From assembly GCA_041288095.1 (NCBI GenBank), contig JBGGMJ010000013.1, forward strand, positions 1-18,930: a DNA stretch of 18,930 bases, given 5' to 3'. The stretch is from Myxococcota bacterium. Lineage in GTDB: Bacteria > Myxococcota > XYA12-FULL-58-9 > JALHOP01. Shown in pieces: positions 1,796 through 17,300 of this stretch (the stretch's first letter is position 1; each line of letters opens with the position of its first letter). The translations under genes and the position numbers were made by a program. Below the pieces are notes generated by a model that had not been told where the DNA came from, did no database searches, and saw nothing but the letters and a program-made list of their open reading frames with translations.

Positions 1796-2731
1796 ATGTC
1801 GGGTGTATCGGTCCCATTCATGCTCGACCCTAAGCTGCGCGATGCGCGGCGCCTTGCGCGCCAACGCGTCAAAGAGGCGCACAAGCTCTTGCGACGCGCC
1901 AAGAGTGGAGTGTCCGAGAGCACGCGGGGCGCCATCCGCGGCAGCGCCGACGAGACCGCCGAGCTCGCCCGTGGCGAAAACGTCGAGGGCATCACCCGCG
2001 CCAGCGATCACCTGAGCGAGCTCATCGACGCGGACCTGGGCTCGTACCGCAAGCCGGCCTGGCGCGAGTCGCTCGAGCAGATCATCGTCGCGGTGCTCGT
2101 CGCCTTGTTGCTGCGCTCGTTCGTGCTCGAGGCTTTCAAGATCCCGAGCGGCTCGATGATCCCGACGCTCGCCATCGGCGATCAAATCTTCGTCAACAAG
2201 TGGGTCTACGGCCTGCGCGTCCCATTCACCTCGATTCGTATGGTGGACTTCGCGCCTCCGAAGAACGGCGACGTCGTTGTCTTCATCTTCCCGAATGAGC
2301 CGCACGAGGACTTCATCAAGCGCGTCGTCGGCGTGCCCGGCGACACAGTGGAAATCCGCCGCGGCGTAATCTACGTGAACGACATCGAGGTCGTGCGCGA
2401 GCCTCGCGGCAAGATGGACGTATGGGATCGCGAAACCAACAGCTCGGTCTGGAGCCAACAGCATAGCATCGCTTACACCGAGCACATGAACGACAAGCGC
2501 TACACCGTGCTCGAAGATCCGGCGGTGTCGCAGCGCTCGAACAACTGGGGCCCGCGCAAGGTGCCCGAGGGCCACATCTTCGTGATGGGCGACAATCGCG
2601 ACCACTCGTACGACAGCCGCGCATGGGGAATGGTGCCGCTCCAGAACGTCCTGGGCCGGGCCATGTTCGTGTGGTGGTCCTGGGGCAAAGACGGCCTCGA
2701 CATCAAACGCCTAGGAACGTGGATTGAGTGA
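1796..2731 (+). CDS. lepB: Signal peptidase I (peptidase S26) with N-terminal helical extension
   Basis: One TM segment, then AFKIPSGSMIPTL (catalytic Ser), DFIKRVVGVPGD (catalytic Lys) and FVMGDNRDHSYDSR (box E). Alternative start ATG 1820. Confidence 0.95.
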   Translation: MSGVSVPFMLDPKLRDARRLARQRVKEAHKLLRRAKSGVSESTRGAIRGSADETAELARGENVEGITRASDHLSELIDADLGSYRKPAWRESLEQIIVAVLVALLLRSFVLEAFKIPSGSMIPTLAIGDQIFVNKWVYGLRVPFTSIRMVDFAPPKNGDVVVFIFPNEPHEDFIKRVVGVPGDTVEIRRGVIYVNDIEVVREPRGKMDVWDRETNSSVWSQQHSIAYTEHMNDKRYTVLEDPAVSQRSNNWGPRKVPEGHIFVMGDNRDHSYDSRAWGMVPLQNVLGRAMFVWWSWGKDGLDIKRLGTWIE

Positions 2732-3464
2732 CCAACCGGTTCTGAACGGCCGGGTGGCTGTCATCACCGGAGGGAGTCGCGGCGTCGGCTACGCGATAGC
2801 GCACGCGTTCGTGACGGCGGGCGCGCGAGTCCTCGTGGTTTCACGCAAGCCCGACGCGGTCCGCGACGCCGTGAGCCGCCTCTGCGTCTCCGGCGAGAAC
2901 GCGCGCGGCTTGGCCCTCGACGTGAACGGGCCCGACGCGGCGCAAAGCCTGACCGCCGAAGCGCAGAAGGCATTCGGCCGCGTCGACATCCTGGTGAACT
3001 GCGCCGGCGTGTTCGTCTACAAACCGCTGCTCGATCTGTCAGCCGCTGATTGGGCGACGTCCTTGGCGACGAACCTGACGGCGCCATTCGTGCTCACGCA
3101 GGCATTCGGCCGCGCGTTCGTGGCCCAGAAGTCCGGCGGCTGCATCATCAACATCACCTCGGTGCATGGCGCTATCGCGGACGCCAACGGCGCGGCGCAG
3201 AGCGCTTCGAAGTTCGGCCTCGAGGGTTTGACCAAGGCGGCGGCCGAGGCGTTGCGGCCGCACGACATCCGAGTCAACGCCATTGCACCGGGCGCCATCG
3301 AACCGGACAGCGCGACGGCGCAGGGCAGCGGGCCGCGCGCTCGGGTGACCCAGGGCGATGTGGCGGCGCTCGCCGTCTATCTCGCGAGCGACGCGGCGCG
3401 AACGATTACGGGCTCGACGATCGAGCTGTTCGGGGTGACCCGTCCGGCCCTCATGCTCGGCTAG
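2724..3464 (+). CDS. Short-chain dehydrogenase/reductase family protein, atypical (YxxxK is QSASK)
   Basis: TGGSRGVG Rossmann motif, DILVNCAG, IINITS, IRVNAIAPG. TTG start overlaps the end of lepB. Confidence 0.9.
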   Translation: MSDQPVLNGRVAVITGGSRGVGYAIAHAFVTAGARVLVVSRKPDAVRDAVSRLCVSGENARGLALDVNGPDAAQSLTAEAQKAFGRVDILVNCAGVFVYKPLLDLSAADWATSLATNLTAPFVLTQAFGRAFVAQKSGGCIINITSVHGAIADANGAAQSASKFGLEGLTKAAAEALRPHDIRVNAIAPGAIEPDSATAQGSGPRARVTQGDVAALAVYLASDAARTITGSTIELFGVTRPALMLG

Positions 3465-3467
3465 AAG

Positions 3468-4742
3468 CTACGGCGCCGGCTTCAGGGGATAGCCCTTCGC
3501 CGCGAACGCGTCACGGACCTGCGCGAAGCCCTTGAGCAGGTAGCGCTCCACCTGCTCCTCGGTGTTCGCGGACGTGAGCGTGATGCGAAGCTCCTCGTGC
3601 CCGCGCGGGATCATCGGGTACGGCCCGAGCGTCAGCAGGACTCCGGCGTCGAGCAGGATCTTCGCGGCCAAGAGTAGGCGCTCGTTGTCGCCGGACCAGA
3701 CGCTGACGATGGGGAAGTAGTTGTCGTTGTCGACGTAGAATCCGAGCTCACGCAGGCCGTCGACAGCCATCTTGGTGAGGGCATAGAGCCGCCGGCGGTA
3801 GTCGTCGCCACGCGCCTCGTTCACCGCCATCGAGGTCAAGAGGCTCTGCAGCGACGCGGTCGGACACGGGCCCGACAAATCGTAGGGCGTCGCGTACGCC
3901 TTGACGAAGCTCATCGTGTTCTTGGACCCGGCGATGCCCGCGGCCATGGACGAGTACGCCTTGGAAAAGCCGGCGACGTACATGAAGTTGTCCGCCTCGT
4001 AGCGCAGACCGGCGCGGCGAACGATACCGTTGCCTCTGTATCCATAAGGCATGTCGGCGTCCGGTCGCTCACCGACCACGCCGAAGCCGTGCGCGTCGTC
4101 GATGTAGACGATGGCGTCGTACTTCTTGGCGAGCGCGGAGAGGCTTCCGAGGTCCGGATACCTGCCGGTCATCGAGAAGACGCCGTCGACCAAGATGACC
4201 TTCTTGGGGTTGGCGCGGTGCTGGTCGAGCAGAGCTTCGAGCGCGGTGAGGTCGCCGTGCGCGAAGCTGCACAGCGTGGCTCCGCTATCGCGGGCCATCT
4301 TGCACGCTTGATACATGGTCATGTGCGCGAACTTGTCGAGGAACATGACGCCGTCTTTGCCGACGAGCGCGGGAATGACACCGATCGAGACGAGCGTCAC
4401 CGTGGGCAAGATGAGGAAGGCTTCGACGCCCAGGAGCTCGGCAAGCGCCTCTTCACATTGATTGTAGAGATGCGGGCTCGCGACCAACCGGCACCAGCTC
4501 GGATGCACGCCCCAGCGTTTGAGCGCGGGCTCGATCTCTTCGATGATCTGTGGCTCGAGATCGAAGCCCAGGTAGTTGCACGAAGCGAAGTCCGCGACCC
4601 ACTGACCGTCGATGCGCAGCATGCGCCCGTCGATCTCGACCGCGGTGGCGTCGAACATGCGCGAGCGCTTGAGCACGTCCTGGATGCTCGCCCGTTGGCC
4701 GCTGACGTTCTTTTCGATGATGCGCTGGAAGATGTCGCTCAT
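3468..4742 (-). CDS. PLP-dependent alpha-oxoamine synthase (AONS/BioF-like superfamily), SxtA C-terminal-domain-like
   Basis: DFASCNYLG, DGVFSM, DDAHGFG, GFSKAYSS (PLP Lys) and LRITLTSANT. Start overlaps the stop of the adenylation gene (ATGA). Confidence 0.9.
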   Translation of the reverse strand: MSDIFQRIIEKNVSGQRASIQDVLKRSRMFDATAVEIDGRMLRIDGQWVADFASCNYLGFDLEPQIIEEIEPALKRWGVHPSWCRLVASPHLYNQCEEALAELLGVEAFLILPTVTLVSIGVIPALVGKDGVMFLDKFAHMTMYQACKMARDSGATLCSFAHGDLTALEALLDQHRANPKKVILVDGVFSMTGRYPDLGSLSALAKKYDAIVYIDDAHGFGVVGERPDADMPYGYRGNGIVRRAGLRYEADNFMYVAGFSKAYSSMAAGIAGSKNTMSFVKAYATPYDLSGPCPTASLQSLLTSMAVNEARGDDYRRRLYALTKMAVDGLRELGFYVDNDNYFPIVSVWSGDNERLLLAAKILLDAGVLLTLGPYPMIPRGHEELRITLTSANTEEQVERYLLKGFAQVRDAFAAKGYPLKPAP

Positions 4743-6292
4743 GGGACCTCGCTCGGCGGCAACTCGGCTTTGAGTCGTTGACGGTCGACCTTACCGCTCG
4801 AGGTGTAAGGAAAGCTCGCGACGATACGCAAGTCGAGCGGCACCATGTAGGCCGGGAGCTGCTGCCGCAGGAGCTCCAGAAGCTCTTCCGGGGTGGCCGA
4901 GCGGTCGTCCGCGAGGAGGACGAAGGCGTGCAGACTGCTGCCGTACTTGGGGTGCGGTCGATGAACGACCACGCACTGCCGGACTTTGTCGTCGCGGCAG
5001 AGCGCGGCCTCGACGTCACCGATCTCGACGCGATAGCCGCGCGTCTTCACCATGTCGTCGCGGCGCCCGAAGTAAGCGATGTTGCCATCGGGGAGGCGCT
5101 TGCCGATGTCACCGGTGCGCCAGAAGCGCAGCGGGAAGCGGTGGAAGCGGCTCCACACGTAGCGCTCCGCGGTGAGCTCGGGCTTTCCCAGGTAGCCGAT
5201 GCAGACGGTACCGCCGTGGCACCAGACCTCGCCGACCTCACCGACGTCGCACAGACGCGGGGGCGTTGCGTCCGTGTCGACGACGATGATGAACGTGTCG
5301 TCGACCTCACGACCGATCGGCACCGGCTCCGTCGGCGGCGTCTCGACCCAGTAGTACGTGATGATGTTGGTCTCGGTCGGCCCGTAGATGTTGCAGACCT
5401 TGGTCTTGGGCATGGCCCGCATGAAGCGCGACAGCATCTCGGGGTGAAAGGGCTCGCCGGCGTAGAGGAAGAGCCGGAGCGGAACGCCCGGGTCGAGGCC
5501 GCCCTTCTCGAGGAGCACCGTCGCCGCCGAGGGGGTCGCGTAGAGCACGGTCGCGCGCTCGCGCCGCATCGCCTCGACATAGGCGCGGTGGCGTTGCTCG
5601 GGGCTCATCCCTTCGAGCGTGCCGCGGCGCTGATCGATGACGATGAGGGTCGCGCCTCCGAGCAGCGTGGTGAAGATGTCGAAGACCGAGAAGTCGAAGT
5701 TGAGCGGCGAGCGGGCGGCGACGCGGTCATCCGGCCCTATGGCGAACTCCTTCGCCATCCACGCCACGAAGGTGATGGCGTTTCGGTGCGTGAGCATCAC
5801 GCCCTTGGGCGTTCCGGTCGATCCCGAGGTGTAGAGGACGTAGGCGAGGCCGTCGAGGATCTCCGGGCGAGTGGGGCGAGGGCGACTCGGCGCACCAGCC
5901 GCGGCTGCGTCCGGATGGATGATCCGCTGTAGCGGCTCGCCCTGGAGCTGCGCGCCATCCGGGTAGGCGACCGGATCGATGATCGCCGTGCGAAGCCCCC
6001 CGTCGGTGATGATCTGACGCAAGCGCTGCGGCGGCGCGAGTACGTCGAGCGGCACGTAGGCGCGGCCAGCGCGCAGCACGCCCAAGATGCTCACGATGGT
6101 CGCCTGTGTGACCGCGGAGCTCACCCCGACCAGATCTTCGTCGTCCGCGAGCACTCCCAAAAGGTGGTTTGCGACCCGGTTCGCCTGCGCGTCCAGCTCG
6201 GCATAGGTCATCGAGCGATCGCCCTCGATGAGCGCGACCCGGTCGGCGAAACGCGCGAACGCGGGGTCCAAGAGGGTGTGCAGCTGGAACAC
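4739..6292 (-). CDS. Standalone amino-acid adenylation enzyme (NRPS A-domain type, PltF/RedM/DltA-like), no fused PCP
   Basis: A3 YTSGSTGTPKG, A4 FDFS, A5 NIYGPTE, A7 RTGD, A8 GRRDDMVKTRGYRVE and A10 SSGKVDR. GTG start with AAGGA SD. Confidence 0.92.
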   Translation of the reverse strand: MFQLHTLLDPAFARFADRVALIEGDRSMTYAELDAQANRVANHLLGVLADDEDLVGVSSAVTQATIVSILGVLRAGRAYVPLDVLAPPQRLRQIITDGGLRTAIIDPVAYPDGAQLQGEPLQRIIHPDAAAAGAPSRPRPTRPEILDGLAYVLYTSGSTGTPKGVMLTHRNAITFVAWMAKEFAIGPDDRVAARSPLNFDFSVFDIFTTLLGGATLIVIDQRRGTLEGMSPEQRHRAYVEAMRRERATVLYATPSAATVLLEKGGLDPGVPLRLFLYAGEPFHPEMLSRFMRAMPKTKVCNIYGPTETNIITYYWVETPPTEPVPIGREVDDTFIIVVDTDATPPRLCDVGEVGEVWCHGGTVCIGYLGKPELTAERYVWSRFHRFPLRFWRTGDIGKRLPDGNIAYFGRRDDMVKTRGYRVEIGDVEAALCRDDKVRQCVVVHRPHPKYGSSLHAFVLLADDRSATPEELLELLRQQLPAYMVPLDLRIVASFPYTSSGKVDRQRLKAELPPSEVP

Positions 6293-6303
6293 GGGTTATC
6301 CTT

Positions 6304-9126
6304 TCACGTAGGCGCGATGACGAAGGCGCGACCGACTCGGGCTACCGGTCCGCCATCATGGACAACCAGAGCCGTCGACGCGAACATCCGCTGCAAGGAG
6401 CCGAGCCCATGGGCGACCGCGCGCATGCCGTCGCGGTCGCTCACGATGACCTGTTCGTCGCTCATGAGGTCGGCGACGACATCGCGACAGCCACAGACCT
6501 CGTAGTAGCGCATGCGCTCGTTCGTCGCGTCCTCGGTGAGCTGGTAGGTGCTGACGACGGCGGTCAGCTCGAGCGTCGCCAGATGGCGAATCACCTTGGC
6601 GTTCTTGGCGATGTTCCCGAAGCAATTGAAGGGGAACAACACGAGCGTCTTGTAGTCGGCCGCATGCAGGGCCTCGCGCTCGAATAGCCGATCGAGGTCA
6701 TCCGCCGAGGCGTAATGCACATGGGAGCGCAGCGGCCCACCGCCGTAGGGCTCGGCCTTGTGGACGAGGTCGCGAACGAAGTCGATGCCGTCGTAGTGAA
6801 GACCGCGCTCGTTTGCCCACTGACGATAGCGCCCCGGCCCGCTGCCGATCTCGAGCAGGTGATTCAAGCCACGCTCGCGCATCACCTGTTCGACGAACAC
6901 CATCTCGGCGGCGAGGTAGTCACCAATCGCGGGCGTGAACAGCGACGTGTCCTGCATGGCGCCGCCATAGCGGCTGAAGAAACCATGCGAGGCCGCTGGG
7001 CTCATCTCGACGCTGACCGCCGCGTCCAGGGTGTCGGGGAGGCAGGCGCTGATCTGCTCGAGCTCGGTCTCGTAGGGGCTCACGCAGGAGTAACCGTCGA
7101 GCCGCGCCAGGATCTGCGTCCCGCGACGGATGGTTCCCTCGACCACGACCGCGAAGCCCGTCTGGATCGGCACCACGAAGGTCACCTCGCCGCGGACGAC
7201 ATCGGCCTCGAAGGTCGCGAACCGATCGATGCCCGCGAAGAGCCGAGGGTTGAGAAAGAGCTCGACCGGGCCGTTGGCGGCATCGAGATAACCCGAGATC
7301 TCGAGCACCGAGCGCTGACCGCTACAGCGAACACGGTACGTCCAGCCGTCGACGGTCCGGCGCTGCAGGACGAGGTCGCTGGCCTCGCGCAGATGGCGTC
7401 CCTGACGGAGCAGCCCGCCGACACACCGCCGCGAACGCCCGACCGCCGACAACAAGATGCGGCGCAGATCACGGTGGGTGGCGTCGAGGTCGCTCGTCGT
7501 ATGCTCCTCGATGGTCGCCGAGAAGGTGTCGCGCTCGAGCGCGGTCAGCGGCTCATTCATGAAGCGGGCGCGCTGCGCGATGAGGGATGCGAGGTCCGAG
7601 CCGTCGCCGGGGCGCTGTGACCCGGCCGTCATGACCGCGGAGAGCACCGTGCTCGCGGCGCGGGCGAGCGCGCGGCTGTGCGCGCGTACCGTATGGCGCA
7701 GGCGCTCGACGTAGGTCTCCGGCAGGCCGTCGACGCGAAAGCCCAGCGCCTCGCGGGTTCGCGTGTCGAGCTCGTCGGGCGATAAGGCGTCGACGAGCAC
7801 CCAGCGCGGCAGAGCACCCAGCGCCGCGTGGATGTCCACCACCGACAGCTCGCGCGGCAGCGGCAAGAGCCAACGCTTTCCCGGGCGAATCAGGCGCGAC
7901 AGCGTCGTCCATGACTGGGCGAGCTGACGCATGGCCTCCGGGCAGCGCTCGCGAACCGCTGCAACGAAGGGCTCGGGCACGCCGAGCGCGCGCACCAGCT
8001 CGAGCGCGAAGGCATCGTCGTAGAGCCGGGGCAGCTCGTACCGCGCCCAGAGGGCGTCGTCTTGCCAGGCTGGGTCGGCCCCGGGCAGCTCCGAGATGCT
8101 CTTGAGCGAGGTGACCCACTCGAGGGTACGGGCCATGTGCTCGAGGCCGTACTGATCGACCGCGGAGCTCGTGCCGTAGATCGCCGTGTAGTCGTCGACC
8201 ATGATCGGCGCGGTGCCCGGCTGCGATGTCGTCGAGTCGAGGTCGACCGGGCCGCCGCCCACCAGGATGTTCGACGCCGCCTGGGCGCCGTGGTGCATCC
8301 GCCAGCGCGTCCACTGGGCCTGCGCGGTGGCATGGATGCCGAGGATCTCGGCCAAACGCCGGCGCCGCTCGGAGCCGCGCGCCGAGCGCTCGAGGCAATG
8401 GTCGAGCACCGCGGCGGCATCGGCTCGCGCCGCCGTCTCGGTCTCCATGAGATGTCCGAGACGCGGCTGGATCGCCGCGCGCACCATCCAGCCGTGCACG
8501 GCGTTGCCCTGAAGGCCGAGGGTCGAGGGGCGAATGAGCACGGCGAGCACGCGCGTGCCGGGGACCTCGACGAGGTTCTCGAGCACCATGCTGCACGCCA
8601 TGCGGCGGACGGCGTTCGTCACCTTGAGGCGGCCGTGATAGCCCTCGAATGTGCTGGGAGCCGCGTGGGCGAGGGGCGTCGCGCCGATGCCGGTGATGTA
8701 AAGCCCGAGCTCCGGGTCGATGACAGCGCGGCCCGCGCCCTTGTTGCCGAAGAGACCGACACCGCCATAGCGGTCAGCGAACAAGCGGCGGGTGAGGGGC
8801 GCGCTCATATCGGGTTGGACATCGAGCCCGCAGCGCTCGCGCACCCACTCGTCGATGTCGTCCGGTAGGTTCCAGCCAACCAGCTCGAACAAGGTCTCGA
8901 GGAGGTCGTGATCGACGTAGAGCACGACACAGTCGTCCGTCGGACGAGCGGCGACGGGCACGAGGTTCGCACCGATGAAGTCGAGGAGCTCGGTGCGGGC
9001 CGACGGCGTCACCCAGAGCTGCCGGGCGATCTCGAGCTGGTCGAGCCGCGTGATGCGTTCCCGATGGTCGGCGAGTCGGACTCCCCGCGCTCGCCCAGCC
9101 AGAATTTCTGGTTGCGCCGCACCCAC
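6304..9126 (-). CDS. Fusion protein: divergent SelO/YdiU/MchC-like N-terminal domain plus C-terminal class I SAM methyltransferase
   Basis: SelO-order motifs ADRYGG..GNKGAGRA, YITGIGATP, GTRVLAV, MVRA..RLGH, HHGAQAASNI..VDLD. The C-terminal ~230 aa carry LLEIGSGPG and YDGID. Exact start is uncertain. Confidence 0.7.
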   Translation of the reverse strand: MGAAQPEILAGRARGVRLADHRERITRLDQLEIARQLWVTPSARTELLDFIGANLVPVAARPTDDCVVLYVDHDLLETLFELVGWNLPDDIDEWVRERCGLDVQPDMSAPLTRRLFADRYGGVGLFGNKGAGRAVIDPELGLYITGIGATPLAHAAPSTFEGYHGRLKVTNAVRRMACSMVLENLVEVPGTRVLAVLIRPSTLGLQGNAVHGWMVRAAIQPRLGHLMETETAARADAAAVLDHCLERSARGSERRRRLAEILGIHATAQAQWTRWRMHHGAQAASNILVGGGPVDLDSTTSQPGTAPIMVDDYTAIYGTSSAVDQYGLEHMARTLEWVTSLKSISELPGADPAWQDDALWARYELPRLYDDAFALELVRALGVPEPFVAAVRERCPEAMRQLAQSWTTLSRLIRPGKRWLLPLPRELSVVDIHAALGALPRWVLVDALSPDELDTRTREALGFRVDGLPETYVERLRHTVRAHSRALARAASTVLSAVMTAGSQRPGDGSDLASLIAQRARFMNEPLTALERDTFSATIEEHTTSDLDATHRDLRRILLSAVGRSRRCVGGLLRQGRHLREASDLVLQRRTVDGWTYRVRCSGQRSVLEISGYLDAANGPVELFLNPRLFAGIDRFATFEADVVRGEVTFVVPIQTGFAVVVEGTIRRGTQILARLDGYSCVSPYETELEQISACLPDTLDAAVSVEMSPAASHGFFSRYGGAMQDTSLFTPAIGDYLAAEMVFVEQVMRERGLNHLLEIGSGPGRYRQWANERGLHYDGIDFVRDLVHKAEPYGGGPLRSHVHYASADDLDRLFEREALHAADYKTLVLFPFNCFGNIAKNAKVIRHLATLELTAVVSTYQLTEDATNERMRYYEVCGCRDVVADLMSDEQVIVSDRDGMRAVAHGLGSLQRMFASTALVVHDGGPVARVGRAFVIAPT

Positions 9127-9131
9127 GCCCT

Positions 9132-10610
9132 ATGGTGTTGCACGAAAGGATGCCGAATCCAAACGGCGAGGGAGACGCGGCGGCAGTCGCGGCCGAGCTT
9201 GCCGACTTGATCGAGAGGCAGCGGCGGACCATCGCCGCCGAACGGCTCGCGTGGGCCGGCCCCGACGCGGTGCGCGACGACCTCGCGGAGGTCGAGCAGC
9301 GCCTGGCCGCCCTGGGCGGCAGCGTTCGCCAAACCATCGAGGCGTGGCGGCTCACTCCCGCGCTGGTCTACGAGCTGAATCGAAGCGCGGGGGTCGCGAC
9401 CGCTGCCTTGCGCCACACACCGCCGCTCGCCGGGCTCCCCGAGGCGGTGCATCCGCTCCAGCAGGCCGTGCAGCCAGCCCCGTACATCATGGACTACGCG
9501 CGCAGTGGCGCACGGCTCAGCTACGTCGCCCAGGCACCGTTCATCACCGGAGTCGACCACCCGCTGCTCGCCGAAGCGGCCGAGCGAGCGCGGCGCACGA
9601 TCCACGGCGCTGGCGCGGGCAGGTCGCTCCTCTTCGGGTCAGGCATGGGGGCGATGAACACCGCCATCGACTTCATGGCGCAGACGGCGCGTGCCGCGGG
9701 ACGGCGTAACTTGCTCGGGCGTCATAGCTGGATCGAAGTGCAGGCCTACGCGCTCGAGCAGCATCCCGACACCTTCACGCTGGTCGACGAAACCGACGCC
9801 GATGCGCTCGCGAGCGCGCTCGCGGACCCAGCGGTCTTCGGGGTGATCATCGAGCCGCTCCCGAACCATCCGACGATGCCGGTGGCGGCGCTCGACGTGT
9901 GTTACAGCGCGCTCGAGAACACCGAGCGCATGCTCCTCCTCGACGCGGCCCACACACCCGAGGTCGCGCCACGCGTCATCCCGGGCGTCATCACGCTGTC
10001 GGTAGTGAGCGGCGTGAAGTTCCTCCAGGCGGGTCTCGACCTCGGCAAGTCCGGCCTGCTCACGTTTTGGGGCGATGACCGTGGCGCCTTCGCGCGCATC
10101 CTCGAGCTGCGCGAGCGCTCCGGACGGGTGCCGTCGTTCACGGAAGCCCGCCTCGCCTGCCTCGACGATCACGCGAGCTTCCAGGCACGCCTCGCCCGCT
10201 ACGACCGCAACATGCGGGCCTGGGCCGCGCACCTCGACGCGGGGCTTCGCGGCAGTGACCTCACGGTCGTCTCGCCGTGGCTCGAAGATCATCCCCACCA
10301 CGCAAGGAGCGCGACCATCGGCGGCGGTCGCTTTGTCTACCTCGGCCATCGGTCGGGCACGTCGCTGCTCGGTGTCGACAGGTGGCTATGCACCGAGGCG
10401 GCTGCTCGCGACCTGCCGGGGGTCGCGGCGTGCACCTTCGGGCTCAACGTCCCGCACGCCAACATCATCGTCGGCGCTGACGGCACGACGTTCCTTCGCC
10501 TGTCATCCGGCAGCGATAGCAGCGCTTCCAGCGACCGCGTCGTGGCGCTTTGGTCGGAGCTCCTCGCGGAACGCTTCAGACCTGCGACGAAACGATCTGC
10601 ACGCCGCTGA
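9132..10610 (+). CDS. PLP-dependent Cys/Met-metabolism (cystathionine gamma-lyase/synthase fold) enzyme with long N-terminal extension
   Basis: DYAR (YxR), FGSGMGAM, IIEPLPNHP, LLDAAH, SGVKFLQAG (PLP Lys) and FLRLSSG. Alternative start ATG 9150. Confidence 0.8.
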   Translation: MVLHERMPNPNGEGDAAAVAAELADLIERQRRTIAAERLAWAGPDAVRDDLAEVEQRLAALGGSVRQTIEAWRLTPALVYELNRSAGVATAALRHTPPLAGLPEAVHPLQQAVQPAPYIMDYARSGARLSYVAQAPFITGVDHPLLAEAAERARRTIHGAGAGRSLLFGSGMGAMNTAIDFMAQTARAAGRRNLLGRHSWIEVQAYALEQHPDTFTLVDETDADALASALADPAVFGVIIEPLPNHPTMPVAALDVCYSALENTERMLLLDAAHTPEVAPRVIPGVITLSVVSGVKFLQAGLDLGKSGLLTFWGDDRGAFARILELRERSGRVPSFTEARLACLDDHASFQARLARYDRNMRAWAAHLDAGLRGSDLTVVSPWLEDHPHHARSATIGGGRFVYLGHRSGTSLLGVDRWLCTEAAARDLPGVAACTFGLNVPHANIIVGADGTTFLRLSSGSDSSASSDRVVALWSELLAERFRPATKRSARR

Positions 10611-11226
10611 CGGTGTCCGCGAAAAAGGACGCGCCGAGCCCTTGCGCATGGCTCAGGATCTTTTCGATCTCCGCCGGCACCGCGGGCATCTGCCGGTACA
10701 TGTTCCAGTACTGCGCCACCTGAACGTTACGAATACCCGCGTACTGCAGCGACGAGACCGCCTCCGCGGCGTAGCTCGCGACGTTTCCAAAACGGTAGGC
10801 GGTCTGCAGGTTGCTGCCGAGCGTCTGGATGACCAAGGCGCGGTGATGCCGCAGGAGCCCGCCCTGGTAGGTCGTTCCGGTCGCGTCCGAGGCGAACGAG
10901 AACCCGGGGATCAGGAACACCCGGTCGAGGTAGCCCTTCAAGATCGCCGGCAGCCCGAAGTTCCAGGCCGGGAAGATCCACGCGAGGCAGGTCGCCCACT
11001 GGATGTGCTCCTGCTCGACCTTGCAGTCCTCGGGCACAGCCCCGGAGAAGCCGCTGCGCCACTCTTCTTCGGAGAGCACGGGGTTGAACCCGACACGGTA
11101 CAGATCGCGCTCGCGCACTTCGGCTTGGGCGCCGATCCCGGCGATGAAGCGCCGGGTGATCTCGGCGTTCAAGCTCTCCTTGCTCGGGTGGGCGGTCACG
11201 ATCAGAAGTCGTTGCGCGCTCGTCAT
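10576..11226 (-). CDS. NAD(P)H-dependent oxidoreductase, flavodoxin-like fold (quinone reductase KefF/MdaB type)
   Basis: TAHPSKESLN, RDLY..FNP and FPAWNFGLPAILKGYLDRVF. Start set at ATG 11226, which has an AGAGGA SD and overlaps the upstream stop (ATGA). Confidence 0.9.
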   Translation of the reverse strand: MTSAQRLLIVTAHPSKESLNAEITRRFIAGIGAQAEVRERDLYRVGFNPVLSEEEWRSGFSGAVPEDCKVEQEHIQWATCLAWIFPAWNFGLPAILKGYLDRVFLIPGFSFASDATGTTYQGGLLRHHRALVIQTLGSNLQTAYRFGNVASYAAEAVSSLQYAGIRNVQVAQYWNMYRQMPAVPAEIEKILSHAQGLGASFFADTVSGVQIVSSQV

Positions 11227-12035
11227 GGCGTCCTCTTGCGCAGCGCGATGACCTGCACCGCATCGTCCCAGCCGAGCGTGTGATCGGCGTAGCCGCCGAA
11301 AAATCCGCAGATCGACAACGGCGACTGCTGGGTGAGGAGCGTCAGCTCTCTCGGGAAGTAGACGCGCTCCGCCGATTTGATCTCGCGCACGGTTTCGCTT
11401 TCCCCGGTTTGGTTGGTGATGCGAATCACGGTGTCGACGCGACCGGTGAGCAGATCGAAGCGCGGCGCGTTGACGCCCCATTCCGCGCGGACCCGCCGTC
11501 CGGGGTGGCTCGGCGCGGTGCCGCCGTAGATGACCCCGTAGTCGATGTAGCCGACATCCTTCGGATGGTTTGCCTCGATGACCAGCAGGCTCTGGTCGTG
11601 CATCGAGCGCGACGCGCCGGCGAGAAACGCGTGCACGGCCGCATCATCCGGGAAATACGCCATGCTATCGAGCGGCAAGAGCACGAGGTCGTACGGCCCG
11701 CGTGGCGACAGATTGCACGGGTGCTCGCGAGCAAACTCGACCGGCGCTGGGGCGACAAGGGAGCGTGCGAAGCTCAAGAAGTCCTCACGCGTGTCGATGG
11801 CGGTACAGCTGAGCCCGCGGAGCGCGAGGGCGCGCGCGTAATACGCCGGGCCGCACTGCACCTCGAGGGCGCTTTGCGCTTTCCGGCCCATGAGCCGCTC
11901 GAAGAGGCCGAGCAGGAAGTCGACGTCGGCCGAGACATCGCGGAAGAAGGCCAGATGCAGCTCGAGAGGGCTCTCGAAGACCGCCGAATAGGCGAAAGGT
12001 TCCGGCGACGGGGAGGCAAGAGCGGGATTCTTCAT
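11223..12035 (-). CDS. Class I SAM-dependent methyltransferase (~270 aa)
   Basis: DVDFL..LF, motif I variant ALEVQCGPA, TAID, YDLVLLPLDS, LLVIE..HP and C-terminal R.YFPREL..L. ATG 12035 preferred because the track extension to 12239 overlaps the divergent gene at 12131. Confidence 0.85.
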   Translation of the reverse strand: MKNPALASPSPEPFAYSAVFESPLELHLAFFRDVSADVDFLLGLFERLMGRKAQSALEVQCGPAYYARALALRGLSCTAIDTREDFLSFARSLVAPAPVEFAREHPCNLSPRGPYDLVLLPLDSMAYFPDDAAVHAFLAGASRSMHDQSLLVIEANHPKDVGYIDYGVIYGGTAPSHPGRRVRAEWGVNAPRFDLLTGRVDTVIRITNQTGESETVREIKSAERVYFPRELTLLTQQSPLSICGFFGGYADHTLGWDDAVQVIALRKRTP

Positions 12036-12130
12036 GTCGCTGGCCAGGCGCGACGATAGCAGTGTATGTCGGGCCGAGGTAGATACAACCGTCACCTCCG
12101 CAAGCGCGGTCACCGGAAGGCGAGCCCGGC

Positions 12131-12583
12131 ATGGGTCAGTCGCACGAGTCGTTCTCAGAGAAGCAAGTACTCGCCGTGTTTCGTCGAACCGACGCGAACG
12201 GCAACTTCCTTTACTCCGACGCGCAAGCAACGGCAGCAACCGTTTTCTGCACGCTGACCTTGGTGCACCACGGGCACTTCACCATGGAGACCCTGCCACC
12301 GGCGCTCGCGGAAATCTGCGCCCGGTACATCAAGGACAAGAAGATCCAGGCCGGCGATCCGGCGAAGGTCCGCGCCGACATGGTGGCGCACTTCGATCGT
12401 GACATTCCCCTCGCCATGATGCGCGAGCTCAATGAAGCGATCACGACGATCGCTCGCGAAGGAGGCGCCGAAGCCGCCGAGGCCTTGGCGCGTGCCGCGC
12501 GCACGAACAGCAATCGACTAACAGGCGGCGGCCCGTTGCCCCCGAAGGGTGGCAAGGGTGGGGTCGGACCGCGCAACAACTAA
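12131..12583 (+). CDS. Hypothetical protein (150 aa) with Gly/Pro/Lys-rich C-terminal tail
   Basis: Clean ORF with GC-rich third codon positions that fills the gap between genes. No family recognised. Confidence 0.7.
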   Translation: MGQSHESFSEKQVLAVFRRTDANGNFLYSDAQATAATVFCTLTLVHHGHFTMETLPPALAEICARYIKDKKIQAGDPAKVRADMVAHFDRDIPLAMMRELNEAITTIAREGGAEAAEALARAARTNSNRLTGGGPLPPKGGKGGVGPRNN

Positions 12584-12645
12584 CCGACGGGCCATCTGGC
12601 CAACTTAATGAATTGATACGCGGCATATGCCCGCTGGAGGACATC

Positions 12646-12954
12646 ATGGGTATCGAGAACAGAGCGCCGACGACGCTCTCGGCTAGCCAACCGGTATGGA
12701 ACATGGAGACTGGCGCGAGCGCGGCTCGCGGCGGTCAGGCCACCCTCGGCCAAGTACTCAGCGCCTTCAGCGATCCGCAGTTCAGCGGCATCGCGAGCCG
12801 GAGCCCCGATCTCGCTGCGTCCGTTCGCGCACTCCAGACCGATGGGGCGACCATCCCCGAGTTGCACGATTTCGATCGTCAGGTGCACGCCGTCCCCGGC
12901 GCCTTGCAGGGCTTCGAGCGCGCTCTTGAGCGCGTCGCGCCCCACCTGCGCTAG
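12646..12954 (+). CDS. Small hypothetical protein (102 aa), paralog 1
   Basis: GGAGG SD before ATG 12646. Aligns along its whole length with 13161-13451, starting with the identical MGIENR. Confidence 0.85.
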   Translation: MGIENRAPTTLSASQPVWNMETGASAARGGQATLGQVLSAFSDPQFSGIASRSPDLAASVRALQTDGATIPELHDFDRQVHAVPGALQGFERALERVAPHLR

Positions 12955-12974
12955 AAAAATCACTCGCCTTTCCG

Positions 12975-12996
12975 CGGGGGTGTTTGCGCACCCCCG
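12975..12996. other. Stem-loop CGGGGGTG-TTTGCG-CACCCCCG downstream of paralog 1 (possible terminator or mRNA-stabilising hairpin)
   Basis: Perfect 8-bp GC-rich stem 20 nt after the stop. No adjacent U-tract, so not a canonical intrinsic terminator. Confidence 0.4.
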
Positions 12997-13160
12997 TACG
13001 GCGGGCCACACGGGCCTGAAGGCCTTGCCCCGCCCGCGCGTCGACCGCGTACGCATTCGAAGCCCTGTCGCTCCGACAGACCCAGAAGGCGCACCCTCCA
13101 GCCGGTGTCTCCGATAACCTGACCAACGATTAGCGCTCTCGGAGCGATAAGGGATTCGTC

Positions 13161-13451
13161 ATGGGTATCGAAAACAGACCATCTGGCACACTTGGATTGA
13201 ACGACACCGCTTGGCACATGGAGACCAGCCGCGGCCAGGCCACGCTGCAGAACGTCCTCCAGGCCTTCTCCGACCCCGGCTTCCGCGGCTTCGCGCAAAC
13301 ACCGGCCATCAGCCCCTCGGTCCGCGCGCTGCAGAGCAATGGCGCGACGCGAGGCGAGCTCCTCGACTTCGACGCCGCGGTGCACAGCGTGCCCGGTGCT
13401 CTGAATGCTTTCGAGAGCGCGCTGATCCGCGTCGCTCCGCACCTCGGCTAA
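13161..13451 (+). CDS. Small hypothetical protein (96 aa), paralog 2
   Basis: About 60% identical to 12646-12954 by hand alignment. AAGGGA SD-like sequence upstream. Confidence 0.85.
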   Translation: MGIENRPSGTLGLNDTAWHMETSRGQATLQNVLQAFSDPGFRGFAQTPAISPSVRALQSNGATRGELLDFDAAVHSVPGALNAFESALIRVAPHLG

Positions 13452-13480
13452 AGCGATACATATGCGGGGGCAGCGCGCCT

Positions 13481-14320
13481 TCAGGTGGGCTTCTGCCACC
13501 ACGCGCTGTGCCCCTGCATGTGCACGTCGGCCGTAATGGAGTGCTTGGCGCGGAACGCATCGATGGCGGCGCGCGCTCCCCAATAGGCGCCGTGCCCGTA
13601 GTCGTTCAGCAAGACGCGTCCCCCAGCGCTGAGCTTGGGGTAGAGCGCTTCGAGCACTGTCCGCGTCGAGTGCTCGTACTGGCAATCGACCCGGAGTAGC
13701 GCGAGCGCCTCGATGGGCGCGGTCGGCAGGGTGTCTTCGAACCAGCCGACGAGCAGCTTCACGTGGTCGCCGTACGCGCCCAACCGCTCGAAGCTCGCGA
13801 CGACCTCGTCGACGTTGGTCGCGAAAGCGCCGGTCCACGACAAGACCGCCCAGCTCGCGATCTCGGCTGGTGCATCCCGGTCGGGATCCGGCGGGGGCAG
13901 GCCGCGGAACGAGTCCGCCGCCCACAGACGGCGCCGCGGCGCGAGCTCTCCGAGCAACGCCGAGAGCAAGATCGAAATGCCGCCGCGAAACACGCCGGCC
14001 TCGCAGAAGTCGCCAGGCACACCCGCCGCGATCACATAGCGTGCATGGCCTTCGACATCGTCGAGGAACTCGCGTCCCAGCACCGTGAGAGCGCGGCCGC
14101 GATTGCCTTCGGCGGCGTAGTAAAGCTCGTCGAGCGGCGTCGACGTGAGGTCGTCGACGATCGCCTGCCACTTGCCGCGTGCCTCGAGCCGCGGACGCAG
14201 CGCCTCGAGGGTGGTGTAGAGGTGCTGGCGAAACGCCTCGATCTGCTCGGCTGTCGGCGTCTCGACAGCGCGATGACGAACCAGCTCGGCCTTGAGCTCT
14301 TCGATGCGTGGGCTTGCCAT
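13481..14320 (-). CDS. TylF/MycF/NovP-family O-methyltransferase-like protein with altered acidic active-site motifs
   Basis: VPGDFCEAGVFRGG, ADSFRGLP, GWFEDTLP, LYPKLSAGG and AIDAFR. ATG 14320 preferred because the track start at 14389 collides with the divergent gene. Confidence 0.88.
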   Translation of the reverse strand: MASPRIEELKAELVRHRAVETPTAEQIEAFRQHLYTTLEALRPRLEARGKWQAIVDDLTSTPLDELYYAAEGNRGRALTVLGREFLDDVEGHARYVIAAGVPGDFCEAGVFRGGISILLSALLGELAPRRRLWAADSFRGLPPPDPDRDAPAEIASWAVLSWTGAFATNVDEVVASFERLGAYGDHVKLLVGWFEDTLPTAPIEALALLRVDCQYEHSTRTVLEALYPKLSAGGRVLLNDYGHGAYWGARAAIDAFRAKHSITADVHMQGHSAWWQKPT

Positions 14321-14387
14321 GAACTTTTGACATACACCCGACCGGCCGCCTCGCGGTATGGTCTTCGCCGTCCAGGAGCCTCCTCCC

Positions 14388-17300
14388 ATGCAACTGTTCC
14401 GCGCCGTACGGGCTGGCCTCGTTGGTTGTCTCCTTGTGTCCGCTTTCGCGGGCTGTCACTCGGGTGAGTCGCTCGAGGTCACGCATGCCTCGCCGACCGG
14501 CGACCTGCGCGGCCTGCCGACGTACTTCGAAGTGCACTTCAATCGGCCGATCGTCGATCCAGACGCCGCCGAGGCCAAGGCGCAAGGGCTCGACATCGAC
14601 ATCACGCCGAGCCTCGCGGGCAAGGTGAGCTTCCCGACGCCGAACTCGATGGCGTTCGCCTTCACGGACCCGGTGCCGCCGGCGACCAAGGTGGAGGTCG
14701 AGATCGACAGCGGCCTGCGGACCTTCGACGGCAAGGCGGTGCTCAAGAGCAGCTACTCATTCGCCTTCACCAGCGAGAAGAACGGCGGCGCCGAGCTCGA
14801 GAAGGTGGCTCACACCAAGGAAGAGTGGGAGGCCGCCAAGGCGGACGGGGCGGCGCCACGGCAGATGGTCAGCGACGGCGAGTCGCAAGTGTCACTGCTC
14901 GGCCTTTACGACGACCTTGTGCTGACGCTGCGCTATCCGGAGAAGGTCGCGACCTTGAAGTCGCTCGTCACCGTGCAAGGCGAGCCGCAGGGGGGTGGCG
15001 GCGCCAAGACCTTGCCGGTCACGCTGACGTTCCCCGCTGGTGACACCGCGGACCGCGTGCTGATCACGCCGAGCTCGCCGTGGCCCGAGCATACCAATCT
15101 CAAGGTCAACCTCGCCAAGGGCCTGGGTGTCGCGCTCACGGGAGCCGGGAAGGTGACCAGCGAGGCGCAGACTCTCCAGGCCGCTACTTATCCGTCGCTC
15201 TCCATCGTCAGCGGGCCGACGTGCGATCTGTGCGTGCCGCCGTCGACCTTGGCCATCGAGTTTTCGACCCCGGTCGACTGCCAGCAAGCGCTGGCGAAGA
15301 TCGCCATCGTGCCGGCGATCGAGTCGTTCAACTGCTCGGGCCAAGCGAACGGCAGCCGCATCGTGCGCATCGAGCCGACGCCGGCGCTCAAGGCGCACAC
15401 CGAGTACACGCTCACCGTTGGTGGCGGCATCGTCGACACCTTCGGCCAAGCACTGGCGCAACCAAAGACGTTCACGCTCAAGACGGGCGACGCCGAACCG
15501 CGCTTTGCGCATCAGACGATGTTCAACGTCCTCGAGCGGGCCGAGAAGCCGGCGCACGAGGAGATGGTCTGGAAGACCACGAAGCTCAACGTCGAAGGCG
15601 CACGCCTGCCGTTCCGTGAGGCGTGGAAGATCATCGCCGCGCAAGATCTCGCCGACCAGGTCGCGTGGGAGGAGCTGCCGTGGTGGCTCTCCGAGAGCTA
15701 CTACGCCTACTACGAGTCGGATTGTTACTGGGACGAGGAAGCGGGCACCGAGATCTGCAACGAGAGCTCGCAGCGCTTTCCCGGCGCGACCGACGACACC
15801 GAGATCAAGATCCCGAACGCGGTGGCGAACAGCATCAGCGTCCCGCAGGGTGAAAACTGGGCGACGGTCACGGTGCCGCTCGAGCCCTACTTGAAGGGCG
15901 CCGGCGGCATCGTCGTCCTCAAGAACACACCGCTCGATCAGAAGGGCGTGCGCGTCAGCAACCCGGTGCTGCGCTTGCTCAACGTCACCGACATCGGCTT
16001 GTCGGCGAAGTACTCGACGCAGCAGCTCGTCGTCATGGCGGCCAAGCTCTCCGACGGCAAGCCCATCGTCAACGCCGAGATCGACATCTACATCGTCGAC
16101 GAGAAGGCGAAAGATCTAGGGGAGCCCGCGGCCCATGCCAAGACCGACGCCCAGGGCATCGCGGTGATTCGCGCGGCCGAGGTCGCGCGCAACGGAGGCG
16201 TCCCGAACCTGCAATCGAAGGGTGTCTTCGTGACCGCGAAAGCGGGCGACGACGAGGCGTTCGTCTGGTCGAAGTTCAAGAACGGCGGCAGCAGCGCACC
16301 GAAGAGCGGGGCGCGGCTCGTCGGCAGCGTCTACACCGAGCGCGGCATCTATCGGCCGGGCGAGACCGTCTACTATCGCGTCGTGGCGCGGCGTCAGTCA
16401 CCCGACGGCTTCACCACTCCCAGCGGCGCCGTGACCGCTTCGGCGGTCTTCGCGGAAGACATGTACGACGACGAGGGCGGCGCACAGGATGCGCTCTTCG
16501 TCAGCGATCAGACGTTCTCGAAGTTCGGCACCATCAGCGGCAGCTTCGTCGTGCCCGCCGATGCCCGCGTCGGCGAGTATCAGATCCGCGCCAAGGTCGG
16601 CGACGACATGTTGCACGAGAGCTTCCGCGTCGGTGAGTTCCGTAGAGCCGAGATGAAGGTCACGGTCGCGACCGACAAGCCGCAATACATGCGCGGGGCC
16701 AAGATGCATGCGCGCGTCAATGCCGACTACCTCTTCGGCGCTCCCGCCGCCGGCCTCACCACGCACTGGACGTTGCGCCGCCAGAGCTCGAGCTTCGACA
16801 GCAAGCGCTATCCGCAGGCCGAGTTCAGCGACTACGACTACCACAGCTGGTACGACGAGCGGTCGGACTACGCCGAGTTCCTCGACGAGGGCGACGCTAC
16901 CCTCGACGATACCGGCAGCTTCACCTTCGACCGCGTGCTCAAGGACGCATCGAGCAACGCCCGCCTCGAGAAGCTCATCGTGTCCGCTACCGTGGACGAC
17001 GCCAGCGGCCAGAGCGTGAGCTCGGCGACCACCGTCGATGTGCACCCCGCGAGCTTCTATGTCGGCATCGACCCCAAGGGGTACCTGCGCGAGAAGGGTA
17101 AGCTCTTCACCTACGACATCGTCGTCGTCTCGACCACCGACCAACCGCTCGGCGGCGTCGAAGTCACCGTGAACGGTGAGCAAGAGCGCTGGTACTCGGT
17201 GAAGCGCAAGGGCCCCGGCGGCCTCATGTACTGGGACTACCAGCACGAGAGCAAGAAGATGCCGGCCGTGTGCTCCGGTAAAACGGACGCCAACGGCGTG

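Follow-up and report, generated by a model that had tools for sequence, protein, structure and literature searches.

The window, by which we mean the whole stretch of DNA analysed here, is contig C13 (18930 bp) of G000, a Myxococcota metagenome-assembled genome (MAG) of 5.85 Mb that is about 90% complete. Its gene map was drawn from a listing of open reading frames (ORFs), Pfam and NCBIfam scans and a frame plot of GC content at third codon positions (GC3). At its centre lie genes for a predicted α-oxoamine synthase (AOS), a stand-alone adenylation (A) enzyme of the nonribosomal peptide synthetase (NRPS) type and a 940-aa two-domain protein. The C-terminal domain of the latter is, by family and motifs, an S-adenosylmethionine (SAM) lyase of the AzeJ/VioH type, that is, an azetidine-2-carboxylate (AZE) synthase. 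We read the locus as an accessory small-molecule cluster that is built around AZE and has neither NRPS nor carrier protein, and the full pathway proposed below seems to us to fall just on the probable side. The genes at the heart of this reading, which include one for a pyridoxal phosphate (PLP) enzyme, are the following:

3468-4742, minus strand: AOS, 424 aa (Aminotran_1_2, E=1.3e-28)
4739-6292, minus strand: stand-alone NRPS-type A enzyme, 517 aa (AMP-binding and AMP-binding_C; TIGR01733)
6304-9126, minus strand: 940-aa two-domain protein, GTG start at 9126
6307-7014, minus strand: AzeJ/VioH-type domain, residues ~705-940 of the 940-aa protein (PDB matches, motifs)
7015-9126, minus strand: SelO-like N-terminal domain with a β-rich C-terminal subdomain (profile, AlphaFold2/Foldseek)
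9150-10610, plus strand: divergent Cys/Met-type PLP enzyme, 486 aa, alternative ATG at 9132
10576-11226, minus strand: NQO1/MdaB-type flavodoxin-fold NAD(P)H oxidoreductase (flavoreductase), 216 aa (Flavodoxin_2, E=1.5e-32)
11223-12035, minus strand: class I SAM methyltransferase, 270 aa (Methyltransf_25/11), longest ORF to 12239

Read directly from the sequence, ATGA overlaps join the A and AOS genes (4739-4742) and the methyltransferase and flavoreductase genes (11223-11226), and a gap of 11 nt (6293-6303) separates the 940-aa gene from the A gene. An earlier reading made without database searches (the sequence-only reading) had described these features and the gene content in the same way, and all of them were reproduced. 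It had also claimed that no carrier protein is present, and this holds as well: PF00550 (PP-binding) has 17 matches in the genome and none on the contig, and no PP-binding domain was found among the ORFs scanned in the related loci described below. A cognate carrier for the A enzyme, in cis or adjoining, is accordingly missing from C13.

The 940-aa protein has no Pfam or NCBIfam match, and neither of its halves was found in 21 closer relatives (three genomes of the same genus and 18 of the same order). Exhaustive phmmer searches split it into an N-terminal part of about 600 aa, which aligns with a family of proteins of about 700 aa, and a C-terminal part of about 230 aa, which aligns with stand-alone proteins of 230–390 aa. 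Searched alone against the PDB, the C-terminal domain matched 8ryg (E=5.7e-18), 29st (1.7e-10) and 8ryd (7e-8), all of them AzeJ/VioH-type chains, and had no further match below 1e-3, ordinary methyltransferases included. The family profile (A3, 21 sequences) reached E=6e-67 with 8ryg and 3e-37 with 8ryd, and its first ordinary methyltransferase followed at 7.5e-7. According to passages of PMC11794875, 8RYG is VioH of Cystobacter violaceus, from the vioprolide pathway, 8RYD-F is AzeJ of Pseudomonas aeruginosa, from the azetidomonamide pathway, and both are SAM-cyclising AZE synthases.

The same passages give the signatures of AZE synthases as FY (17-18), in which Tyr18 is the gating tyrosine, PFNxxGN (133-139) and RxxYYxxC (172-179). 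The second and third are present in the window domain as PFNCFGN and RMRYYEVC. Across the 21 aligned sequences, P133, F134, N135, G138, R172, Y175 and Y176 are invariant (21/21) and N139 is conserved in at least 90%; in AzeJ, F134, N139, R172, Y175 and Y176 hold SAM in its kinked, cyclising conformation (PMC11794875). On the strength of the PDB matches, the signature motifs and the conserved SAM-holding residues, we assign the domain to the AZE-synthase-type SAM lyases. The sequence-only reading had regarded this half of the fusion as a tailoring methyltransferase and the PLP enzyme as the maker of a non-proteinogenic amino acid. The PDB matches and motifs overturn the first of these assignments, and, going by family and motifs, the cluster's non-proteinogenic amino acid is most likely AZE made by the AzeJ/VioH-type domain and not a product of the PLP enzyme. 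The gene calls of that reading were thus largely right, whereas its central chemistry was misassigned.

The AOS falls below the NCBIfam equivalog cut-offs of bioF (219 against 426 bits), KBL (154 against 460), SPT (165 against 640), ALAS (112 against 339) and the CqsA type (96 against 428). Its best PDB match is 8s1y/7poa, of the AONS/KBL type (E=7e-47), and all 33 matches at E<=1e-20 are named as AOS-family proteins (AONS, KBL, SPT, ALAS and cysteate acyltransferase). K261 is invariant within GFSKAYSS, and sequence identity amounts to 67–75% in four other myxobacterial loci and 43–69% in the metagenome cassettes described below, with a mean column identity of 72% in the alignment (A5). Judged from these comparisons, the AOS belongs to a cassette-specific, unusually conserved clade of the BioF/Kbl/SPT superfamily. 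The combination of an AOS with a GNAT (found in related loci) and a short-chain dehydrogenase/reductase (SDR) had raised sphingolipid (Spt/bCerS/CerR) and capnine (CapA/B/C) readings; we rejected both because the AOS scores well short of the SPT cut-offs, the A enzyme belongs to the amino-acid type and the link to an AzeJ-like gene fits better.

With 359.3 bits against a TIGR01733 cut-off of 317.4, the A enzyme qualifies as an NRPS-type amino-acid adenylation enzyme, and in the PDB it matches NRPS A domains and DltA best. Its specificity positions, read by hand from the motif positions of the Stachelhaus scheme, are D-(F/L)-F-S-L-A-I-I-(I/V)-K and are the same in 8/8 AOS-linked A domains, including those from cassettes without the PLP enzyme. 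The substrate of the A enzyme must therefore be available in every cassette, and AZE is the only special substrate available in the minimal one. AZE, being a secondary amine, would serve poorly as the amino acid that the AOS binds to PLP. A predicted complex of the AOS (A5) with the A enzyme (A4) scored 0.00, which speaks neither for nor against binding.

Synteny in other Myxococcota carries much of the case for a functional unit. When one genome per species was scanned for the PLP family, locus L006 emerged, from a Myxococcaceae MAG, and a sample of 400 other Myxococcota genomes was then searched. The PLP gene occurs in four of the 400, all from one family (f17), and in none of the 21 closer relatives. 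One of the four, G330, agrees with L006 in its contig coordinates and is taken to be the genome of L006; the other loci are L015 (G233), L016 (G235) and L017 (G320). L006 encodes the PLP enzyme (44% identity), a separate SelO-like protein (28%), the AOS (75%), the A enzyme (58.5%), a separate AzeJ-like protein (31%), the methyltransferase (56%) and the flavoreductase (55%). Over the four loci, identities range from 52 to 59% for the A enzyme, 67 to 75% for the AOS, 41 to 44% for the PLP enzyme, 47 to 56% for the methyltransferase and 53 to 55% for the flavoreductase, whose gene adjoins that of the methyltransferase in all four, G233, G235 and G320 included.

In G233 and G320, and partly in G235, genes for the AzeJ-like protein, A enzyme, AOS, a GNAT and the PLP enzyme follow one another in a row. 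G235 deviates in having its AzeJ-like gene on a separate contig and no visible A gene, L016 starting at a contig break inside the AOS gene. Strong AzeJ-like genes (E 1e-73 to 1e-93) were found in exactly these four genomes, with weaker ones (E of about 1e-30) in two more. The SelO-like gene, fused in the window, is adjacent in L006, 2.5 kb away in G233, 4.6 kb away in G235 and on another contig in G320; in genomes of 7.5–11.5 Mb, such proximity is far beyond chance. We conclude that the cluster is real, conserved and horizontally patchy. The sequence-only reading had proposed a genuine carrier-less biosynthetic cluster around the A enzyme and the oxoamine synthase, to be abandoned as a chance collection of genes if homologues were never syntenic elsewhere, and synteny in four other Myxococcota genomes bears it out.

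Two of these loci hold an additional gene of the MR/MLE enolase superfamily after the methyltransferase–flavoreductase pair (L015:6313-7400 in G233 and L017:1518-2615 in G320). Activities known from this superfamily include N-acyl-amino-acid racemisation and dipeptide epimerisation, which, together with the GNAT, would be compatible with an N-acylated amino-acid intermediate.

Searching metagenomes with the AzeJ-like profile produced 80 loci, whose neighbouring genes were identified by tblastn. The AOS adjoins the AzeJ-like gene in eight of them (seven distinct), an A enzyme was found in 13, and none of the 80 has the PLP enzyme, methyltransferase, flavoreductase or SelO-like gene by tblastn. 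Where at least 3 kb was available on both sides (20 loci), A enzyme and AOS occur together in four (three distinct) and an A enzyme in eight. A GNAT gene lies beside the cassette in L024, L027, L034 and L080, sometimes with an MFS transporter (Pfam). The order is AzeJ-A-AOS-MFS-GNAT in L080 and GNAT-AOS-A in L027, divergent there from AzeJ and a circularly permuted ATP-grasp. L034 has AOS-AzeJ-A-GNAT (5668-10079) between cyaA/hemCD and dapF-DUF484, flanks that we take to be a housekeeping neighbourhood typical of Gammaproteobacteria.

For a tree of AzeJ-like proteins, 74 of 84 candidate rows were kept (at least 170 aligned residues and no stop), and a quick maximum-likelihood (ML) tree was rooted at the midpoint. 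All 12 AOS-linked rows fall within one set of 16 (SH-aLRT 98), and none of the 58 other rows is AOS-linked. The four unlabelled members of the set come from contigs of 1.6–2.7 kb, too short to show neighbours. AZE synthase, A enzyme and AOS thus constitute an evolutionary unit, which reappears in other phyla and is there usually accompanied by a GNAT.

Some further features of these loci and proteins were seen in passing. The L034 cassette looks like an inserted island. In L024, a 141-aa remnant of the C-terminal part of an A enzyme (3232-3657) lies between the AzeJ-like and AOS genes, in what is either a decaying or deleted cassette or an assembly artefact. Some AzeJ-like proteins of about 350–390 aa (L030:281-1411, P0018) have a C-terminal extension, which in P0018 gives a weak PilZ match (E=0.0011). 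A recurrent fusion of SelO-like domain and AZE synthase was considered and rejected, since P0141 and P0155, the two further long proteins that end in an AzeJ-like domain, begin with unrelated sequence (hhalign probability 0.1%).

We propose the following pathway. The AzeJ/VioH-type domain would cyclise SAM to AZE and methylthioadenosine, as its family membership and signature motifs suggest. The A enzyme would adenylate AZE and pass it to a thiol, most simply that of free coenzyme A (CoA), by analogy with the step from BioW to BioF. The AOS, if it follows the chemistry of its family, would then carry out a decarboxylative Claisen condensation of the AZE acyl group with an α-amino acid, yielding an azetidin-2-yl α-aminoketone. 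The γ-lyase/synthase-like PLP enzyme may supply or modify the amino-acid partner, the methyltransferase and the NQO-type flavoreductase would act as a pair of tailoring enzymes, and the SelO-like domain may have a part in binding or activating an intermediate, in regulation or in self-protection. That the first three steps are consecutive is suggested by the 11-nt gap, the ATGA overlap and the single AOS-linked clade.

Several observations weigh against this account. The FY signature is absent from the window domain, which reads FF where the orthologues in L006, L015 and L017 read FY. The Y18F variant of AzeJ kept about 60% of its activity (PMC11794875), so the substitution weakens AZE synthase activity as an assignment and does not exclude it. 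The activity of VioH on SAM is low, and the enzyme operates together with a radical-SAM partner, VioG, as the same source describes; this cluster contains no radical-SAM gene. The A-domain positions lack the Val236/Gln239 shared by Pro-type codes and are unlike the two AZE codes listed in PMC12283262, so that the case for AZE as A substrate stays indirect. Free CoA as the thioester acceptor of the A enzyme is an assumption made by analogy, and the roles given to the PLP enzyme, methyltransferase, flavoreductase and SelO-like domain are guesses from family membership. The window has no GNAT, whereas the other four of the five myxobacterial loci have one, of the glycine-N-acyltransferase/FR47 type, between the AOS and PLP genes. 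Finally, the genomes are MAGs, three of the related loci are cut off by contig breaks within or next to the cluster, and the four f17 genomes are kin and therefore not independent observations.

The PLP enzyme belongs to a small family with 11 other homologues (34–45% identity), two of which carry a PF01053 match. The enzyme itself reaches only 13 bits (E=0.039) against that model, below the gathering score of 27. Lys290 is invariant, in SGVKFLQAG, and the family profile matches the Met γ-lyase 7bqw (E=2.8e-8) with VSGVK aligned to SATK and the lysine placed on the PLP lysine. A model of the enzyme (pLDDT 83.5) has CGL, CalE6, MGL, CBL and CGS as best Foldseek matches (E of about 1e-13 to 1e-12) and shows an extra N-terminal extension of about 90 aa, a three-helix bundle. 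Profile and model together identify a divergent member of the fold-type-I Cys/Met γ-lyase/synthase family. Outside the Myxococcota, family members lie directly after an 830–850-aa Mur-ligase-like (cyanophycin-synthetase-like) protein in two Gammaproteobacteria MAGs (L007:7139-9691, L008:7224-9707); in a Bacillota MAG (L009:11335-14834), the neighbours are a canonical Cys/Met PLP enzyme and an ATP-grasp ligase. These settings suggest that the family has a role in other amino-acid-derived pathways.

The PLP gene (ATG 9132 or 9150, plus strand) and the 940-aa gene (GTG 9126, minus strand) diverge with 5–23 nt between their starts, so either each promoter is situated within the coding region of the opposite gene or the starts have been called wrongly. 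Alignments with homologues back the long N-termini of both proteins, and a promoter and terminator scan of 2500-15000 found nothing above shuffled controls. As to the tailoring pair, the PDB matches of the flavodoxin-fold protein are NADPH quinone oxidoreductases. The methyltransferase finds in the PDB only a generic methyltransferase (1wzn, E=4.6e-5); its homologues align from residue 75–81 of the long ORF, and the ATG at 12035 is taken as its start.

For the N-terminal domain of the 940-aa protein, a profile built from 27 sequences (A2) finds SelO/YdiU in the PDB (E=6e-6). The AlphaFold2 model of the domain (pLDDT 86, pTM 0.89) gives SelO/YdiU structures at Foldseek ranks 1 to 9 (E 5e-10 to 3e-9, TM by target 0.61–0.66), with protein kinases from E=1.3e-3, in agreement with the SelO-like label that the sequence-only reading had given to this half of the fusion. 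Pfam SelO (PF02696) does not match the window protein even at E<=10; six of the 27 family members match it at E<=1, and two cluster-linked but more distant copies, those of L015 and L016, exceed its gathering score of 22.8 with 31–33 bits.

The catalytic set of SelO is listed in PMC7359531, in a passage citing Sreelatha 2018, as K113, E136, R176, D252, N253 and D262; we placed the equivalent positions through a hidden Markov model alignment to YdiU. R176, R183, N253 and D262 are invariant in 27/27 family members, and D252, the catalytic base, is Ser or Gly in all 27. At K113 the window has Thr, the four sequences closest to it have His and the other 22 have Lys, while E136 is Arg in the window and is lost in the clade formed by the window and these four relatives. 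The window protein thus keeps three of the six listed residues, with the equivalents of K113, E136 and D252 replaced. SelO enzymes AMPylate proteins (PMC7359531). The window domain shares the kinase-like fold of the SelO/YdiU AMPylases/UMPylases (PDB 6EAC, 6K20, 6LNA) and adds a β-rich C-terminal subdomain; unlike them, it is fused to a predicted AZE synthase.

By profile and model, then, the domain is SelO-like but not a canonical SelO. Remodelling of the catalytic Lys/Glu/Asp set makes binding of a nucleotide or intermediate, regulation or self-protection likelier than protein AMPylation, and we consider it probable that the domain serves one of these ends and does not AMPylate proteins. One guess is that it protects against AZE as a proteotoxic proline mimic. 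A more specific idea is that the SelO fold was recruited as a small-molecule nucleotidyl/phosphoryl transferase or as a nucleotide sensor in a carrier-less, NRPS-less azetidine alkaloid route, where it might, for example, activate an intermediate for the γ-lyase-like PLP enzyme; we put this forward tentatively, as a possibility well short of probable. SelO-like homologues also occur in two other Myxococcota in unrelated contexts (G025, L004:11946-14267; G034, L005:4681-6765), so the wider SelO-fold family of about 700 aa is not restricted to this pathway. In the literature searched (titles and abstract openings), nothing relevant tied a SelO-like protein to a biosynthetic cluster, and the word SelO does not occur in the main text of PMC11794875.

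The A-domain code is the natural starting point for a different order of events, in which the A enzyme takes as its substrate an ordinary hydrophobic amino acid, which the AOS converts to an aminoketone, while AZE is joined later or is a co-metabolite or toxin. Late joining could proceed through amide formation by the A enzyme or N-acylation by the GNAT. The specificity positions, which are not of the Pro or AZE type, agree with this, as does the GNAT gene between AOS and PLP genes in four of the five myxobacterial loci; PMC11794875 suggests that AZE made beside stand-alone A domains is 'ligated into a peptide metabolite'. Yet the minimal cassettes consist of AzeJ-like protein, A enzyme, AOS and sometimes a GNAT, and, if A enzyme and AOS both used common amino acids, would leave AZE without an activator. 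The coupling of the three genes and the single AOS-linked clade, moreover, suggest consecutive steps. We judge this order of events unlikely.

Doubt may also be directed at the chemistry of the lyase domain, as the AOS-linked AzeJ-like clade could catalyse, in place of AZE formation, another SAM-lyase or alkyl-transfer reaction, such as transfer of a 3-amino-3-carboxypropyl group to the aminoketone or cyclisation of a modified SAM. The AOS-linked sequences do form a clade of their own, apart from the 58 other AzeJ-like rows. Within the quick ML tree, the window and L006 domains sit on long branches (1.67 and 1.58, respectively), the window reads FF and not FY, and VioH itself has low activity on plain SAM (PMC11794875). 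Against this stands the near-invariance, in the 21-sequence alignment, of the SAM-holding residues F134, N139, R172, Y175 and Y176, and we regard the clade as having changed its reaction in this manner as improbable.

Downstream of the methyltransferase gene, four further genes complete the stretch up to 14320:

12131-12583, plus strand: orphan 150-aa protein with a glycine-rich tail (GC3 frame plot, sequence resembling a ribosome-binding site, RBS)
12646-12954, plus strand: orphan 102-aa protein, paralogue A (GGAGGA-type RBS)
13161-13451, plus strand: orphan 96-aa protein, paralogue B (GC3 frame plot, RBS-like sequence)
13481-14320, minus strand: TylF-family O-methyltransferase, 279 aa (TylF, E=1.8e-49), alternative start 14389

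The three small ORFs, all backed by the GC3 frame plot and RBS-like sequences, had been noted as small unknowns in the sequence-only reading, which overlooked that two of them are paralogues: the tandem products of 12646-12954 and 13161-13451 are 58% identical and both begin MGIENR. The 150-aa protein (P0003) finds in Pfam only a TetR_C_27 match (E=0.016) that, at 15.8 bits, stays below the cut-off of 26.1; the two paralogues (P0004/P0005) find none. For P0005 the protein database returned its own record and no homologue, and paralogue A occurs within this genome on C13 only. Against the ESM Atlas, the small proteins stayed below a score of 0.9 and a TM of 0.5, hence without a match, and pairwise comparison with the two small proteins encoded downstream of L006's SelO-like gene yielded E values of 0.21 and 0.28. 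Neither the three small proteins nor TylF nor the SDR upstream of the AOS gene has a counterpart in L006 or L015–L017 (tblastn, E<=1e-3), which delimits the conserved unit of the window to 3468-12035. A cluster spanning 3468-14320, as had been claimed, is therefore upheld for 3468-12035, and 12131-14320 has no counterparts in the other loci. The small proteins and TylF are additions specific to this genome, and their membership in the cluster is uncertain.

Two tandem paralogues of about 100 aa and a 150-aa orphan next to these enzymes do invite a reading as a protein-modification system akin to those of ribosomally synthesised and post-translationally modified peptides, in which the SelO-like domain, from a family of protein AMPylases (PMC7359531), would nucleotidylate the paralogues and the other enzymes would decorate them. 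With no counterpart of the small proteins in the four syntenic loci or elsewhere searched, a SelO-like domain that lacks the K113, E136 and D252 equivalents, and an AZE synthase, A enzyme and AOS that act on small molecules, we give this very little weight. A chance neighbourhood of unrelated genes, for which one could cite the varying gene order and the lack of conservation of 12131-14320 and the SDR, deserves still less, being contradicted by synteny: six gene families co-occur in five genomes (five genera, two families), and the genes are translationally coupled.

When comparing the window with characterised systems, the closest likeness lies in the lyase. AzeJ and VioH are members of the same family as the C-terminal domain of the 940-aa protein and share its PFNxxGN and RxxYYxxC signatures. 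Their pathways feed AZE to multimodular NRPSs, whereas here there is neither NRPS nor carrier and an AOS follows the A enzyme; the window also differs in its SelO-like fusion, in FF for FY and in having no VioG-like radical-SAM partner. PMC11794875 describes, among its genomic contexts, clusters II and IV, in which azeJ-like genes lie beside stand-alone A domains and N-acetyltransferases. Its main text and three supplement files hold no occurrence of oxononanoate, aminotransferase or Myxococc, and the contexts in its Fig. 4 may include an AOS. The literature searched, at the level of titles and abstract openings, held nothing that links an AZE synthase with an oxoamine synthase. To our knowledge, AZE is known in bacteria only as an NRPS building block, in azetidomonamides, vioprolides, bonnevillamides and clipibicyclene.

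The proposed transfer has a parallel in BioW and BioF, including a natural BioWF fusion (PMC9544090), where an ATP-dependent enzyme activates an acid and delivers it as a CoA thioester to an AOS, with no dedicated carrier protein involved. BioW is, however, not an NRPS-type A domain, the AOS of the window lies below the BioF cut-off, and the partner acid is probably AZE and not pimelate. In SxtA of saxitoxin biosynthesis (MT-GNAT-ACP-AONS) and in the PigH/PigI-type proteins of prodiginine biosynthesis, a methyltransferase fold, a GNAT and an activating or loading function combine with an AOS to make an aminoketone derived from an amino acid. These systems tether the acyl group to an acyl or peptidyl carrier protein, of which there is none here. 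Whereas the methyltransferase-fold domain of SxtA is a C-methyltransferase, that of the window is a predicted SAM lyase. AZE synthases and the NRPS pathways that they feed are thus already known, and the carrier-less A–AOS logic and the SelO-fold fusion are undescribed in the literature searched. No characterised cluster with the same gene set was found there either, in keeping with the view of the sequence-only reading that the set is not a known pathway.

AZE is a strained proline mimic. If the proposed pathway is correct, joining AZE to a second amino acid by a C–C bond would define a new class of azetidine metabolites, and a compact, transferable cassette of three enzymes would offer a simple biocatalytic route to azetidinyl ketones. 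The spread of the cassette over phyla suggests an ecological role. Through the SelO-like partner one could learn which function a remodelled 'pseudo-pseudokinase' has beyond protein AMPylation, and, should the fold indeed have been recruited as outlined above, it would be the first member of the SelO family with a role in secondary metabolism. Two families are uncharacterised in their own right: the SelO-fold proteins of about 700 aa without a D252-equivalent base, and the divergent γ-lyase-like PLP enzymes, which elsewhere also occur near Mur-ligase-like and ATP-grasp enzymes.

The flanks of the window carry the following genes:

1796-2731, plus strand: LepB (left flank)
2724-3464, plus strand: FabG-like SDR (left flank)
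14358-18929, plus strand: bacterial α-2-macroglobulin, >1524 aa (right flank), running off the contig end

The SDR was considered as a ketoreductase of the pathway and set aside, having no counterpart in the four syntenic loci. Further out on the left flank, 802-1692 encodes a 296-aa protein with a MopE-type Cu-binding motif (E=0.0018).

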